Assembly: GCA_046050355.1 (NCBI GenBank)
Contig: JBJOPW010000004.1
Location: forward strand, 1-64,000
DNA from: Candidatus Parcubacteria bacterium
Lineage (GTDB): Bacteria > Patescibacteriota > Minisyncoccia > Phycocordibacterales > UBA918
Direction of reading: 5' to 3'
DNA: 64,000 nucleotides
Shown here: positions 32,408 to 61,722 of the stretch, piece by piece
Layout: each line of letters begins with the position of its first letter
Numbering within the stretch: position 1 is the first letter of the stretch
Translations under genes and position numbers: made by a program
Notes under the pieces: model-generated
Database searches by the model: none
The model's input: only the letters and a program-made list of their open reading frames with translations
Told to the model about the DNA's origin: nothing

Positions 32408-32573
32408 GTGGACTTTTGCCTTGCCTGAAGAGTCGTCGTATGTGGTTGATTTTTTATGGGAATCCATGCCTTTTCTAGTCTCATTATCATTCCACAGATC
32501 GAGACTACAAGCAAAGGTTGGGTGACCGGATTCTGCAGACCCGGCCACCCGCGCTCCCACAAGGGGAGGGTCG

Positions 32574-32756
32574 TCAGGTCTCGCGGCGCGTGATCCGCTC
32601 TTGGAGCCATTCCAGCACTTCGCTTTCGACCCATCCGACCCGGTTCGGCCCGAGGTTTACCCGCTTGGGGAATGCTCCGACCTTTTCCAGCCTCGCGACG
32701 TGTTGCGGCGAGTACAGGACCAACTCTTTGAGCTGGCGCTTTGAAAGTATCCTCAT
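32574..32756 (-). CDS. AlpA-family regulator/excisionase
   Basis: FPKRVNLGPNRVGWVESEVLEWL motif. Confidence 0.88.
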   Translation of the reverse strand: MRILSKRQLKELVLYSPQHVARLEKVGAFPKRVNLGPNRVGWVESEVLEWLQERITRRET

Positions 32757-32953
32757 CACGATCTCTCCATGGTGAAGAGCATCGCGATGCCCAGGGTTAC
32801 GACGTTCCTAGGTGTGAGGAGAGTAGTGCGAGATTAGTTGCCATGCCATAGAGTTGTGCCGCTCTTGATCCGTTCCTGCATGGCCAGTGTGCGCTTTGAT
32901 TGAACCGGGATAGGGTTTTCGATTAGACTCCTGCACATGAAATGGAGGTACGA

Positions 32954-33599: not shown

Positions 33600-34760
33600 A
33601 TGGTTCTCTTGAACAGCCTGAACCCACTGAAAGCAAAGAACCTAGTCGCAGGAAAGCACGCTGACGGCCAAGGACTTTGGCTAGTGAAGAGTGAGCGCAC
33701 TCGGGGAAAGTGGGTTCTCCGCGTTGTCGTCCAAGGAAAGCGTCGGGAAATGGGTTTGGGCCGGTGGCCTGACGTCTCCATTGCTGAAGCGCGTGAGTTG
33801 GCCGCGGAGGCGCGGAGGAAGCTCCGGACAGGCATCGATCCGATAGCTCAACGTGTTGAAGGCCGGAAGAAAGTCGTACGCCTAACGGTACAACAAGCAG
33901 TGGACGCGTGCTTCGAGGCACGAAAAGCAGAACTCAAGAGCGACGGCGAGGCGGGTCGCTGGATGTCTCCGCTCTCAGTCCACGTGCTGCCGGTGATTGG
34001 AAAGACTGCGATAGAGGACGTCGATCAACATGTGCTGAAGAAAGCTTTGGAGCCCATCTGGCACTCAAAGGCCGACACAGCTCGAAAAGCTCTAAACCGC
34101 CTCAGCTTGACCCTAAAGCATGCGGCTGCACTTGGACTGGAAGTAGACCTCCAGGCAACGATGAAGGTCCGGGCTCTCCTAGGCAAACAAAGGCACGTGT
34201 CCGAACACATTCCTTCGATGCCATACAAAGACGCACCGGCCTTCTATCGCTGGCTCTCCGAACAGACCTCGGCGGCAGCCCTACCGCTTCGCTTCCTCAT
34301 TTTGACAGCTGCCCGAACTGGAGAGGTGCGCTATGCTCGGCATAGCTACATTGAGGACAAAGTTCTTACACTCCCTCCCGAGATCACAAAGACCGGGCGT
34401 GAACACAAAATTCCGCTTACATCGGAAGCCGCAGCAGTGATCAACGCTGCGAAGCTGCAAGACAGCCAGGACCTGTTGTTCCCTTCCCCAACCGGAAAGA
34501 CCTTCTCTGATGCGACAATGTCACGATTAATGCAGCGTGAAGGCCTAGTTTATAGGCCCCATGGCTTCAGGGCCACATTCCGGACGTGGGTCGAAGAACA
34601 AACTGACACTCCTCTCGAAGTGGCTGAGGCCGCACTCGGGCACGTCGTAGAGGGACAGGTCATCCGGGCCTACCAACGATCTGATCGACTTGAGAAACGA
34701 CGATCCTTGCTAGTCAAATGGAGCAAGTATCTGCAAGACACAGGACACCCCAACCCATAG
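33600..34760 (+). CDS. P4-like tyrosine integrase
   Basis: GKHADGQGLWL arm-binding domain; RTGE, HGFR, LGH and RAYQR catalytic motifs. Confidence 0.95.
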   Translation: MVLLNSLNPLKAKNLVAGKHADGQGLWLVKSERTRGKWVLRVVVQGKRREMGLGRWPDVSIAEARELAAEARRKLRTGIDPIAQRVEGRKKVVRLTVQQAVDACFEARKAELKSDGEAGRWMSPLSVHVLPVIGKTAIEDVDQHVLKKALEPIWHSKADTARKALNRLSLTLKHAAALGLEVDLQATMKVRALLGKQRHVSEHIPSMPYKDAPAFYRWLSEQTSAAALPLRFLILTAARTGEVRYARHSYIEDKVLTLPPEITKTGREHKIPLTSEAAAVINAAKLQDSQDLLFPSPTGKTFSDATMSRLMQREGLVYRPHGFRATFRTWVEEQTDTPLEVAEAALGHVVEGQVIRAYQRSDRLEKRRSLLVKWSKYLQDTGHPNP

Positions 34761-44499: not shown

Positions 44500-45117
44500 A
44501 TGCAATACGGCGTAGATGTGGCGAGCACCCGGCTTGATGATCTCGATAAACGAGTGTTGGCAGATGTGCGTGAACGTATCGGTCGTGTGGAGGAGGTGTC
44601 AGTGCTTGATGTTGGGTGCGGGCAGGGTGGCTTGGCGCTGGTACTGACTCAAGCTGGAGCCATTGTTACTGCACTTGATATTCCTGACTACAGTTCGGCC
44701 TTTCAAAATGAGACTGCTGCGACAATTGAATTTGTTCAGGCAGATGTCCGTGAGTGGATACAAAATAATACTGTTCAGTTTGATATGGTCGTGCTGCAAC
44801 GCGTACTCCATTATCTACCGAATCATGAAGCTAAGAAGCTTCTGAGAGCACTGCGAGATGTGACCGCTACACTCTATCTGTCAGTGACCGGCACGACGAC
44901 TGCCATCGCGAGTCACTATGACAAAGTCCACGAGCTAATCGAGAGGCGGTGGGGTGTACTTGATACAGTGGGGCAGGAATTATTTTCTATCACTGCACCG
45001 GTGTGTCTCTATAGTAAGGAGGAGTTACTTGAGCTCCTCAAGGACTGTGGGTGGGAGGTAGTGTGGTCGCGAGTGTCTGATTTTGGGAATATTAAGGTGG
45101 TGGCTCGAGGGAGTTAA
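44500..45117 (+). CDS. Class I SAM-dependent methyltransferase
   Basis: VLDVGCGQG and FDMVVLQRVLHY motifs. Confidence 0.88.
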   Translation: MQYGVDVASTRLDDLDKRVLADVRERIGRVEEVSVLDVGCGQGGLALVLTQAGAIVTALDIPDYSSAFQNETAATIEFVQADVREWIQNNTVQFDMVVLQRVLHYLPNHEAKKLLRALRDVTATLYLSVTGTTTAIASHYDKVHELIERRWGVLDTVGQELFSITAPVCLYSKEELLELLKDCGWEVVWSRVSDFGNIKVVARGS

Positions 45118-45121
45118 GTAC

Positions 45122-45157
45122 AAACGTAAAAGTCCCCAATCGGGGACTTTTACGTTT
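45122..45157. terminator. Bidirectional terminator
   Basis: AAACGTAAAAGTCCCC-AATC-GGGGACTTTTACGTTT. Confidence 0.8.
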
Positions 45158-45166
45158 ACGTGTAGG

Positions 45167-45345
45167 GTGCCGGAGATAGGACTTGGTCACAGATAATTTC
45201 TTGCAGAAATTTCCGCGACCCCGCCTCATAGTCGCAGAGCGACATATTCCGGCTTTCAAGTCCCTCACGAAAGTAAAGCAGTTTGCTTTCTCTCCGGCTC
45301 ATTAAAATCAAAATGCGCCATAAAGCGCATTAAGATTTTATATTG
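45167..45345 (-). other. tRNA-Leu 3'-associated structured element
   Basis: Split antisense copy of the tRNA 3' end, internal hairpins, terminal degenerate direct copy CAAGTCCTATCTCCGGCAC. Confidence 0.75.
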
Positions 45346-45426
45346 TGCCGGAGGAGGGACTTGAACCCTCACACCTTGCGATAATGGGTTTTGAATCCAT
45401 CGCGTCTACCATTCCGCCACTCCGGC
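45346..45426 (-). tRNA. tRNA-Leu(CAA)
   Basis: GCCGGAG...CTCCGGC acceptor stem, loop TTCAAAA, long variable arm. Confidence 0.95.
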
Positions 45427-45619
45427 AATATTTCTCTTTCTATACTCGGCAAATATGAGGTATTTCCTCAATCGCTAGAGCATACCAGATAATCCAAAAC
45501 TTATAAACACCCATGGCCGGGGAAGGGTGTGGTAGAATAGAGGGACGAGCAACCGCGTTAGAACGGTTTTGGAGGTCATTCTTGCTCGGCTTTTTCCGTG
45601 TTAATTAGTATTCTGTCTT

Positions 45620-61213: not shown

Positions 61214-61376
61214 TTGGGGTAGACAAGAGAGCTTCACTTTTTTGTCTTTTTCTGGCACTATATGGCCTGCTGTGGCGTGTGTGTCCCCCACTCTCGCTGC
61301 AGCAGACGCAAGGAGGGCTTCATTCGCCCTCCTCGCCCTCCTTGCGTCACCCAAGGGTCAATCGACCCTTACTTTT

Positions 61377-61447
61377 TGCCCGATCGTCTAATGGTAGGAC
61401 TCTGGTTTCTGGCACCAGCTATCGAGGTTCGAATCCTTGTCGGGCAG
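61377..61447 (+). tRNA. tRNA-Gln(CTG)
   Basis: TGCCCGA...TCGGGCA acceptor stem, loop TTCTGGC, GGTTCGAATCC. Confidence 0.93.
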
Positions 61448-61622
61448 CACGAGAGAATTAAGCGCTTTATAGCGCTTTTTCTCGTGCTGCCCGAAGGAGT
61501 GATTCAATATCACTCCGTCAAGGATTCGAAGCCTGATTGAGCATAATTTGTGACTGAAAGGAAACAAATTATCCAATCAGGATACTGCTCCTGTAAGGAG
61601 AGAAATTCCTTGTCGGGCAGCA
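61448..61622 (+). other. tRNA-Gln 3'-associated structured element
   Basis: Split antisense copy of the tRNA 3' end, internal hairpins, terminal direct copy TCCTTGTCGGGCAGCA. Confidence 0.78.
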
Positions 61623-61722
61623 TAGAGATATAAACACTCATCATCACACGGTCACATAATTCGGTGCCATACTTAGTGTGTACAATCATAGAGTCGTTCT
61701 TTATTTCAATAGTTCATTTTTT

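Follow-up and report, generated by a model that had tools for sequence, protein, structure and literature searches.

In the 64,000-nucleotide (nt) stretch of DNA analysed here (the window: positions 1 to 64,000 of contig JBJOPW010000004.1, assembly GCA_046050355.1, Candidatus Parcubacteria bacterium), the gene for tRNA-Leu(CAA) is directly followed at its 3′ side by a structured element of 178 nt (45167–45344, minus strand). We found that this element is one copy of a large family of protein-less, structured insertion elements of about 130–230 nt, which lie directly behind tRNA and transfer-messenger RNA (tmRNA) genes, in the same orientation, in Paceibacteria-type bacteria of the candidate phyla radiation (CPR). 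The element may be mobile but non-autonomous, folding as a single strand and targeting tRNA 3′ ends via an antisense arm, a reading to which we give an even chance. The genome of the window (hereafter G000) comprises 939,894 bases on 17 contigs (0.94 Mb, 99.97% complete), and ARAGORN counts 42 tRNAs in it, with four tRNA genes inside the window.

The tRNA-Leu(CAA) gene (45345–45426; ARAGORN, 57.7 bits with the Rfam tRNA model) and all parts of the element behind it are on the minus strand. In the predicted fold, the element is closed by a helix whose 5′ strand is the last 21 nt of the gene (D1; tRNA nt 54–74, 45345–45365). Directly downstream, a first hairpin (hp1, 45299–45344, with its stem at 45312–45331) was delimited by a terminator scan combined with folding; it is a G+C hairpin flanked by A/U that contains GCGCTTTATGGCGC and is followed by a T run, and the scan scored it, on its consensus match alone, as terminator-like on both strands. 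An antisense arm follows in two parts. Part 1, GCCGGAG (45292–45298), is the complement of the 3′ strand of the acceptor stem (nt 66–72); it lengthens the hp1 stem and is paired with D1 in the minimum free energy (MFE) fold. Part 2, GAGGGACTTGAA (45255–45266), is a 12/12 complement of the T-loop and the 3′ strand of the T-stem (nt 54–65). A second hairpin of 25 nt (hp2, 45267–45291), of the form AG-stem-CTGC loop-stem-CGT, splits the arm at the junction of tRNA positions 65 and 66, and its position and flanks (AG..CGT) are identical in other copies of the element. The arm is succeeded by a conserved 3′ domain of 69 nt (45185–45253) that ends in GTGACC and was defined by alignment, RNAalifold, a covariance model (R1) and covariation. 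This domain, assigned to class B below, consists of a 3-bp GCC/GGC helix around an internal loop and a hairpin, and then of a GGUCG/UGACC helix with an invariant G·U pair around a second hairpin. Lastly, a degenerate direct copy of the tRNA 3′ end (D2, AAGTCCTATCTCCGGCAC, 45167–45184) is identical to tRNA nt 57–74 at 15 of 18 positions and is nearer to a sister-genome allele of tRNA-Leu(CAA) (T-stem CCCAT) than to the neighbouring tRNA.

An initial annotation of the window had named the following parts after this tRNA: hairpins, GCCGGAG, an A-hairpin-GT unit, a T-arm antisense, a GCC..GGC pairing, a GCAA loop and a degenerate copy. Every one of them was found on the minus strand, with the GCC..GGC helix and the GCAA-loop hairpin both inside the 69-nt domain. 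The description of the element as built from the tRNA's own 3′ end holds for about 45 of the 178 nt, but the remainder is a conserved, covarying scaffold unrelated to the tRNA. As for the terminator said to close the element, a terminal hairpin is indeed present past D2 (45122–45157, minus strand) but was not called by the terminator scan, its T run lying within the stem; this hairpin is probably the original terminator of the tRNA-Leu locus. The short open reading frames (ORFs) that run over the element were rejected as coding sequences because copies differ by insertions and deletions that are not multiples of three and because the stems covary. A search of the window with Rfam 15 at gathering score returned only tRNAs and one unrelated small RNA family, with the tRNA-linked RtT family (RF00391) absent; when the threshold was relaxed to E-values up to 10 for 45100–45450 and 61300–61700, only weak hairpin-type chance matches appeared, among them neither RF00391 nor an intron. 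No promoter-like site was detected within the element by a sequence scan.

Folding of the 206-nt stretch that begins at tRNA nt 54 gave an energy of -96.8 kcal/mol, compared with -51.9 +/- 4.8 for shuffled sequences (z = -9.4). The MFE fold is a three-way junction in which the tRNA tail pairs with both antisense pieces, and hp1 and hp2 make up the other arms; DNA energy parameters produced the same fold. When a stretch of 267 nt was folded, the tRNA 3′ half paired with the arm and the tRNA 5′ acceptor strand with the distal copy.

This layout, with its tRNA-specific parts, recurs well beyond the locus. In a strict automated test, which looked 20–170 nt downstream of each tRNA for a T-arm antisense with at most 2/12 mismatches, it was found at 17 of the 41 scored tRNAs of G000, and an exact-word scan read by eye placed antisense acceptor, antisense T-arm and direct copy behind about 24 of the 42. 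It is likewise present in the complete tRNA set of a sister genome, in 145 of 151 family genomes and at 80 metagenome loci. We also pooled 136 distinct tRNA loci, a biased sample in that they had partly been picked via element matches, and found a T-arm antisense (12 nt, at most one mismatch, 25–170 nt downstream) at 45 of them; in controls in which one tRNA was scored against the flank of another, the same was true of 33 out of 2720. The tRNA-matched layout is thus far beyond chance. The initial annotation had allowed that the architecture might be absent at other tRNAs and genomes, which would have made its two cases coincidental integration scars; the opposite was found at both levels. The scaffolds behind different tRNAs can be closely similar: the copies behind tRNA-Leu(CAA) and tRNA-Leu(TAA) of G000 share 90% identity across 214 nt, and their differences, as judged by eye, fall in the tRNA-matching parts. 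Among the tRNAs of G000, one of the eight that encode CCA carries an element, against 16 of the 33 that do not, a link that is suggestive on numbers too small for more.

A second element within the window is found behind tRNA-Gln(CTG) on the plus strand (61449–61621; word scan, fold and terminator scan), and its fold is also far more stable than expected (z = -13.6). It starts with an hp1 that is terminator-like in the scan (61449–61485), followed by a 9-nt exact antisense to the acceptor (GCTGCCCGA, 61486–61494), hp2 (61495–61518) and a 12/12 antisense to the T-arm (CAAGGATTCGAA, 61519–61530). Beyond the arm lie a long hairpin (61531–61582), a hairpin with a CTGTAAG loop (about 61589–61601) and the direct copy (61607–61621). 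The two elements of the window had been described as having the same order of parts; the 5′ halves do agree, but the 3′ halves are different modules. On the basis of this 3′ module we sorted the copies into three classes. Class A, exemplified by tRNA-Gln, has the long hairpin, the motif GTACTG and the CTGTAAG-loop hairpin; class B, exemplified by tRNA-Leu(CAA), has the GTGACC domain; and class C combines an unsplit antisense arm of 17–19 nt with a related GTGACC domain. Class B also has a second type of junction, in which the arm is complementary to the end of the acceptor (its last 4–5 bases), the discriminator and the start of the trailer (~6 bases), and the junction at the end of the module reads GTGACC|N73. 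Whatever the type, the junction with hp1 and hp2 is closed by a helix that has the antisense arm as its 3′ strand.

The 3′ domain is conserved in its structure. Alignment of 12 class-B domains of G000, which range from 69 to 109 nt, showed compensatory change at 16 of 25 pairs (RNAalifold). Among 39 distinct copies from sister genomes, 98.8% of cells were paired and 23 of the 25 pairs were doubly changed, a value reached by none of 500 shuffles, with slid controls at 27–44%; for 100 distinct metagenome copies the corresponding values were 95.4% and 22 of 25, with slid controls at 33–44%, both alignments having been fitted to the model and so being biased towards structure; even so, the double changes and the slid controls stay widely separated. 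One G·U pair in the GGUCG/UGACC helix is kept in 35 of the 39 sister-genome copies and 92 of the 100 metagenome copies. Counted over all pairs, G·U outnumbers A·C by 148 to 28, and by 56 to 27 when that near-invariant pair is removed. This excess indicates that the conserved fold belongs to the tRNA-sense strand, either as RNA or as single-stranded DNA.

In order to follow the family across genomes, a covariance model of the class-B 3′ domain (R1), a step that the initial annotation had itself proposed, was built and run on 151 family genomes, with the best 25 matches per genome scored. Matches were obtained in 145 of them, with 19 in G000 and at least 25 in some others. A same-strand tRNA called by ARAGORN lay at most 700 nt upstream of 32 of the 39 matches in fetched loci; of the other seven, one is 91 nt behind a tmRNA gene and two more are behind intron-bearing tRNA-Asp genes (read by eye). 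The metagenome set comprises 105 R1 sites across 80 loci. Of its 92 scorable matches, 71 have a same-strand tRNA or tmRNA upstream with a median gap of 88 nt, one has such a gene on the opposite strand, and for 20 none was called. The class-A module is also found away from tRNAs, as a four-fold cluster on contig C7, in a partial copy of 5S rRNA and as copies nested in a class-B domain. The 5S-linked case (G000 C2, about 125150–125340) consists of a partial copy of the 5S rRNA 5′ end upstream of the real 5S gene, with the class-A three-hairpin module placed after ~nt 29.

Comparison of related genomes revealed turnover at the same tRNA. The tRNA-Leu(CAA) gene adjoining a ParB-like gene was recovered from 17 sister genomes: it is followed by class B in two of these (G030 and G009), by class A in five (G025, G007, G031, G013 and G024), by a bare partial copy only in G022 and by nothing in nine. 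The class-A element of G025 consists of two identical units in tandem, a perfect two-unit array. A longer array on a metagenome contig (L171, 4051–4689) contains five identical class-B units head to tail with a 136-nt period; it stands behind what by eye looks like a tRNA-Asp-like 3′ end, and it ends in a partial sixth hp2. Between G000 and G007, among tRNAs with identical 5′ and 3′ ends, those for Tyr, Glu (CTC) and an initiator-like Met are filled only in G007, and His is filled only in G000. Nesting is also seen. In G009 and three of the nine downstream-empty genomes, the working gene is preceded by incomplete older copies of tRNA-Leu that contain hairpin modules, and in G000 5′ remnants of the same tRNA lie upstream of tRNA-Lys(TTT), tRNA-Ser(ACT) and tRNA-Leu(CAG). 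That the elements are mobile is well supported by their turnover, by the tandem arrays and the nesting, and by the absence of any gene in them. The contigs of three DNA metagenome runs break at or inside the element, and no contig of those runs joins across an empty site. In the one RNA run compared, coverage was limited to the tRNA and came through contigs of other organisms. Neither movement nor a circle nor a transcript of an element was seen directly.

Some further features of these loci were noted in passing. Fragments of the 5′ part of older tRNA copies, broken by hairpin modules (with TGGGA loops and others), are found in G000 at C2 29399–29490, C11 14056–14180 and C5 47803–47960, and similarly nested tRNA loci occur in sister genomes (L007–L009, L016). 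Among the Leu(CAA) loci (L001–L020), close species carry at least three alleles of the tRNA, differing in acceptor, D and anticodon stems, and the distribution of these alleles does not track the similarity of the ParB-like gene, which suggests that whole tRNA genes have been replaced. At one locus (L062, 1652–1978) a 108-amino-acid (aa) acidic ORF sits in cassette-like fashion between the distal copy of one element and the hp1 and arm of the next.

What is duplicated on insertion can be read from pairs of alleles. For tRNA-Glu(CTC), the empty allele runs ...GGGTCACCA|AAGAG; in the filled allele of G007 the proximal copy ends ...GGGTCAC at C74, hp1 comes next, and the distal copy GATTCCCCGTAGGGTCACCA is then followed by the homologous AAGAG flank. 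Where a gene encodes CCA, it is the distal copy that reads on as CCA. Repeat boundaries were measured at the 26 loci that have an exact 12-nt anchor. The left end of the repeat falls at nt 53–56 in 21 of them, specifically at nt 56 for nine GTGAC|C junctions (class B/C-type) and at 53–54 for ten junctions that are mostly class A; the right end falls at nt 74–77 in 17, earlier in four and past hp1 in five. The repeat makes a tail-bearing insert in the T-loop indistinguishable here from one placed after nt 74 with a tail copy at its end. On either account the working tRNA is complete, its encoded CCA is lost, and a terminator-like hairpin comes next. The GTGACC|N73 junction type has the same geometry, with the arm matching the last acceptor bases and the trailer.

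The arm follows the local tRNA. In G000 and G030, the T-stem GAGGG/CCCTC stands with the perfect arm GAGGGACTTGAA, and the distal copies contain CCTAT and CCCAT, resembling the tRNA alleles of G009, G010 and G035. In the G007 Leu element, the arm has one mismatch per piece against the local tRNA allele, and the distal copy is one base off the G000-type tail. When mismatches to the tRNA were pooled over 55 elements, which had been selected on the arm and placed by an imperfect automated procedure, there were 111 per 1100 positions for the arm and 194 per 935 for the distal copy. The arm of class B and C elements pairs with T54-T55 as well, bases outside the repeat in whose place AC stands ahead of the distal copy. 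Since the arm pairs outside the repeat and tracks the local tRNA, it is fitted to the tRNA context, either by selection or by conversion within the quasi-palindrome.

Overall, these features can be accommodated in the following proposal. The element would act as a folded single strand, DNA being likelier than RNA, and its antisense arm would base-pair with the sense strand of the tRNA gene 3′ end. Joining would then take place 3–4 nt in from the 5′ end of the duplex (C56|R57 or C72|N73) and would leave the paired segment duplicated; the tRNA would be kept intact, as its full 3′ end and the terminator-like hairpin precede the insert. Cutting and joining would be performed in trans by a host enzyme, for which an Xer-like tyrosine recombinase acting on the folded site or an HUH/Y1 enzyme are candidates. 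We infer both the guide role of the arm and the choice of DNA over RNA. DNA-level action is favoured because hp1, being terminator-like, should stop most tRNA transcripts before the scaffold, and because no promoter-like site was detected in the Leu element. In its most specific form, in which the split arm of ~20 nt is a programmable guide, an enzyme supplied in trans cuts at fixed distances, no dedicated gene is needed and retargeting takes place by a change of guide, the proposal strikes us as tentative and rather unlikely.

A number of observations weigh against insertion directed by the arm. The repeat varies in length and in five of the 26 loci extends through hp1, a variability that is easier to explain by recombination inside a shared segment than by a fixed staggered cut. 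For the initiator-like tRNA-Met, hp1 is the native terminator and is already present in the empty allele, which makes the exact inserted unit ambiguous. The whole tRNA-Leu of G007, beyond its tail, differs from the allele represented by its distal copy, and simple insertion leaves this difference unexplained. A functional RNA would likewise conserve structure on the sense strand. The mismatches between arm and tRNA comprise 24 G·U, 16 A·C and 71 others, with no clear excess of G·U in what is a noisy alignment.

The search for an enzyme or an autonomous relative counts on the same side. In G000 we found no IS110-type DEDD gene (PF01548 profile, no match), no TnpB-type gene and no kilobase-scale interval between tRNA-tail copies, nor was any ORF-bearing autonomous version seen. 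The Y1/HUH genes of G000 are one IS200 TnpA and three RAYT-like paralogues of 211–236 aa (C1 5838–6455, C1 69071–69682 and C2 111287–111982) with NCBIfam E-values of about 1e-10 and scores below the cut-off. RAYT-like profiles matched in 89 of the 151 family genomes against 145 for the module, and gave no match in three module-rich genomes that are 98–99% complete (G010, 17 module matches; G032, 15; G112, 16). No module was present at any recombinase or transposase locus of G000, including the IS200 TnpA and the three RAYT-like loci. When the 834 ORFs around the 80 metagenome copies were compared with one another by BLAST, no recombinase was recurrent; the largest cluster spanned six loci and is not a recombinase. 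The one reverse transcriptase of G000 (349 aa; C11 987–2393) adjoins a 117-aa Avd-like four-helix-bundle gene and, judged by eye, is of the diversity-generating retroelement (DGR) type and thus an unlikely partner. Two tyrosine recombinases of unassigned type were detected, an Xer-like one on contig C8 and another in the window at 34281–34685, together with one LAGLIDADG gene, an ORF beside tRNA-Met. Two scaffold patterns matched nothing in viral contigs. The RAYT-like gene on C2 was seen to be preceded by G+C-rich palindromes.

The variable repeat invites a related explanation, in which the element is an integrative mini-element whose tail copy, hp1 and arm fold into a single-stranded attachment site that mimics the T-arm/acceptor site and is recombined in the T-loop by a tyrosine recombinase that every genome would possess. 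The proximal tail, hp1, arm and scaffold would then be borne by the element, and the distal copy would be the displaced resident tail; CTX-phage attP(+) with XerCD and integron attC serve as models. Such an origin, which we regard as unlikely on balance, accounts for a right repeat end that moves and sometimes takes in hp1, as expected of a shared block of identity rather than of a staggered cut, and for the G007 tRNA-Glu(CTC), in which CCA is found at the distal copy, ahead of the native flank, and is absent from the proximal one. It also suits the distal copies that match other alleles, the cassette-like unit with a small ORF between two units, a possible strand-marking role of hp2 as an extrahelical feature, and the targeting of tmRNA, which classical integrases use as well; an Xer-like tyrosine recombinase is encoded on contig C8 of G000, so no phyletic problem arises. 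It has difficulty, however, with the arm of classes B and C, which pairs with T54-T55, bases that would be missing from a circle junction ..GTGACC|R57 and that fit the integrated or target state better. Moreover, no circle was seen, the conserved 3′ domain of 69–115 nt is given no role, and an incoming tail with mismatches would kill a single-copy tRNA. An origin of the inverted copy by hairpin opening, in the manner of P-nucleotides, was considered separately and rejected by eye because hp1 loops are mostly non-palindromic and hp2 breaks the arm. Another reading would be passive scars with no activity of their own, left behind either by islands that an integrase had inserted or by template switching at terminator palindromes. 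Direct repeats of a tRNA tail are the classical attL/attR signature, and inverted repeats beside palindromes can arise, and stay perfect, through template switching. Scars would nevertheless not keep a scaffold of 69–115 nt with 22–23 of 25 pairs compensated across 145 genomes, nor would they yield near-identical scaffolds at different tRNAs, as at Leu-CAA and Leu-TAA, and we consider them extremely improbable.

Covariation of this strength, with a near-invariant G·U pair on the sense strand and strict co-orientation with the tRNA, could instead denote a functional RNA made together with the tRNA. Read-through of hp1 would release the scaffold as a stable or regulatory RNA like RtT of the E. 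coli tyrT operon; alternatively, the structure would be a processing or quality-control device in which the tRNA 3′ half is sequestered through the arm and the tRNA 5′ strand is open to pairing with the distal copy, as in the 267-nt MFE fold. That the arm still matches the tRNA where the distal copy has decayed speaks for such a role. Nevertheless, a terminator-like hairpin and T run separate tRNA and scaffold in both copies of the window, and the Leu element showed no promoter-like site inside it. Presence, class and copy number vary among sister species, with the nine empty Leu(CAA) loci out of 17 as an example; perfect tandems, nesting in dead tRNA copies and a copy next to 5S rRNA give a selfish rather than a functional impression; and there is no match in Rfam, RtT included. 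We therefore view a functional RNA as decidedly unlikely. If the insertion were intron-like, tRNA nt 1–56, the insert and the distal tail would form a split gene, with the spare tail allowing the gene to work with or without excision of the RNA. The junction at C56|R57 and an MFE fold that closes the whole transcript by pairing the tRNA 5′ strand with the distal copy are in keeping with this, as are related modules in T-loops of dead tRNA copies that have no spare tail (L009) and the occurrence of group I introns in tRNA genes of G000 (tRNA-Asn). It is made very improbable by the many distal copies that cannot form a T-stem (in the Leu element, CCTAT opposes GAGGG) and by the second junction type, located after the acceptor stem, where splicing is unneeded. 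Furthermore, our reading of the tRNA sets shows no G000 tRNA that depends on splicing of such an insert (the Asn gene has a group I intron and the Asp gene an intron by eye), and the elements contain no group I match, even though RF00028 does find the intron in the tRNA-Asn of G000.

The closest known kinds of element all share features with this family, and for most of them at least one tested defining feature is absent from it. Tyrosine integrase islands and prophages, reportedly described by Williams in 2002, use a sublocation of tRNA and tmRNA genes that runs from the T-loop to the 3′ end. Like them, the elements sit at the 3′ end of a tRNA or tmRNA gene, lie between the gene tail and a second copy of it, repeated directly from the T-loop on, leave the gene intact and stack on insertion; unlike them, they are 130–230 nt long, have no integrase or ORF, possess a hairpin-split antisense tail and a scaffold conserved in structure, and occur at ~40% of the tRNAs of one genome. 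REP/REPIN sequences with their RAYTs and miniature IS200/IS605 elements (PATEs) are similarly short, non-coding, hairpin-rich, strand-specific and mosaic, reach tens of copies per small genome and are mobilised in trans, as is proposed for the present element. In IS200/IS605, the ends rely on pairing with an internal guide to recognise the cleavage and target sites. In the present family, however, a Watson-Crick match of ~20 nt to the target takes the place of 4–5 nt, the target is duplicated, and no GTAG-type tag was seen. RAYT-like genes are present in only 89 of 151 genomes, and the three of G000 are not flanked by the module; the PATE-like hairpins and strand specificity are accompanied by a duplicated tRNA tail, and the lone IS200 TnpA of G000 has no module nearby. 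The elements also differ from miniature inverted-repeat transposable elements (MITEs), as their inverted repeats copy the target and not a transposon end, the repeat varies in length, and no autonomous relative was found in G000 or among metagenome neighbours.

The imperfect inverted repeat, the conservation of structure over sequence on one strand and the cassette-like stacking recall integron attC and CTX-phage attP(+), from which the elements differ in that the arms copy the tail of the neighbouring tRNA and an extra conserved domain lies outside the repeat; no IntI was identified, although no IntI-specific search was made. Group II introns, through their EBS/IBS pairing, and the bridge RNA of IS110 likewise have an internal segment, here split, that is antisense to the insertion flank and varies with the target. 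Nevertheless, no DEDD gene is present in G000 or recurs near the 80 metagenome copies, there is no intron-sized ribozyme and no Rfam intron match, and the sole reverse transcriptase gene of G000 is on another contig and is DGR-type by eye. Among structured RNAs, the tRNA-linked repeats of tyrT lie directly behind the tRNA gene and end in a copy of the tRNA 3′ end. The elements resemble RtT (RF00391) in having repeats right behind a tRNA that end in a tRNA 3′ copy, but they have no RF00391 match, and RtT is one enterobacterial locus rather than a genome-wide family. RtT, described as an RNA released from the tRNA transcript (10.1101/2024.07.17.603846), is not known to have an antisense arm. Lastly, a literature search that covered listings and the starts of abstracts found no paper describing such elements.

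Several neighbouring features are recorded here in their own right. In G000, the anticodon loop of tRNA-Asn(GTT) (C4 68110–68352; L126 111–353) holds a group I intron (RF00028, 79.2 bits), and the gene was missed by ARAGORN; it is likewise trailed by elements, one of class C and one of class A. The tRNA-Asp(GTC) gene (C11, about 33900–34190) seemingly contains an insert of ~260 nt in its anticodon loop, as judged by eye and against the uninterrupted gene at another locus (L060); Rfam made no intron call for this insert at gathering score, and elements of class C and class B lie behind the gene. Free-standing LAGLIDADG-like ORFs occur directly past distal copies, both behind tRNA-Met in G000 (C11 33130–33820, Pfam LAGLIDADG_3) and behind the tRNA-Leu(CAA) element of G030 (L003 542–1100, minus strand, motif by eye). 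In the window, 32528–32789 (minus strand) is a full-length match to Trans44_sRNA (RF02649, 'Ruegeria trans44 sRNA') at 174.6 bits against a gathering score of 108; it is unexpected in a CPR genome, lies ~1.5 kb from the tyrosine-recombinase-like ORF at 34281–34685 and could point to a mobile-element RNA instead of a Ruegeria sRNA.

At ~40% of the tRNA genes the downstream space is taken up by elements, in a 0.94-Mb genome with hardly any DNA to spare elsewhere, and the elements constitute a practical trap for tRNA annotation and for assembly, as the contigs breaking at the element in three metagenome runs illustrate. If the arm directs insertion, the family would provide a natural and minimal case of DNA insertion programmed by a guide, with the tRNA gene end as its safe harbour, and the enzyme would be worth finding; with a guide-directed system of this kind, the smallest bacterial genomes would harbour a novel class of nucleic-acid-guided DNA transposition. 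If the scaffold works as RNA instead, CPR bacteria would possess a new class of structured RNA that is linked to tRNAs and very abundant. Either way, the elements account for the many tRNA genes without an encoded CCA in these genomes and for the scrambled, nested or duplicated look of their tRNA loci.

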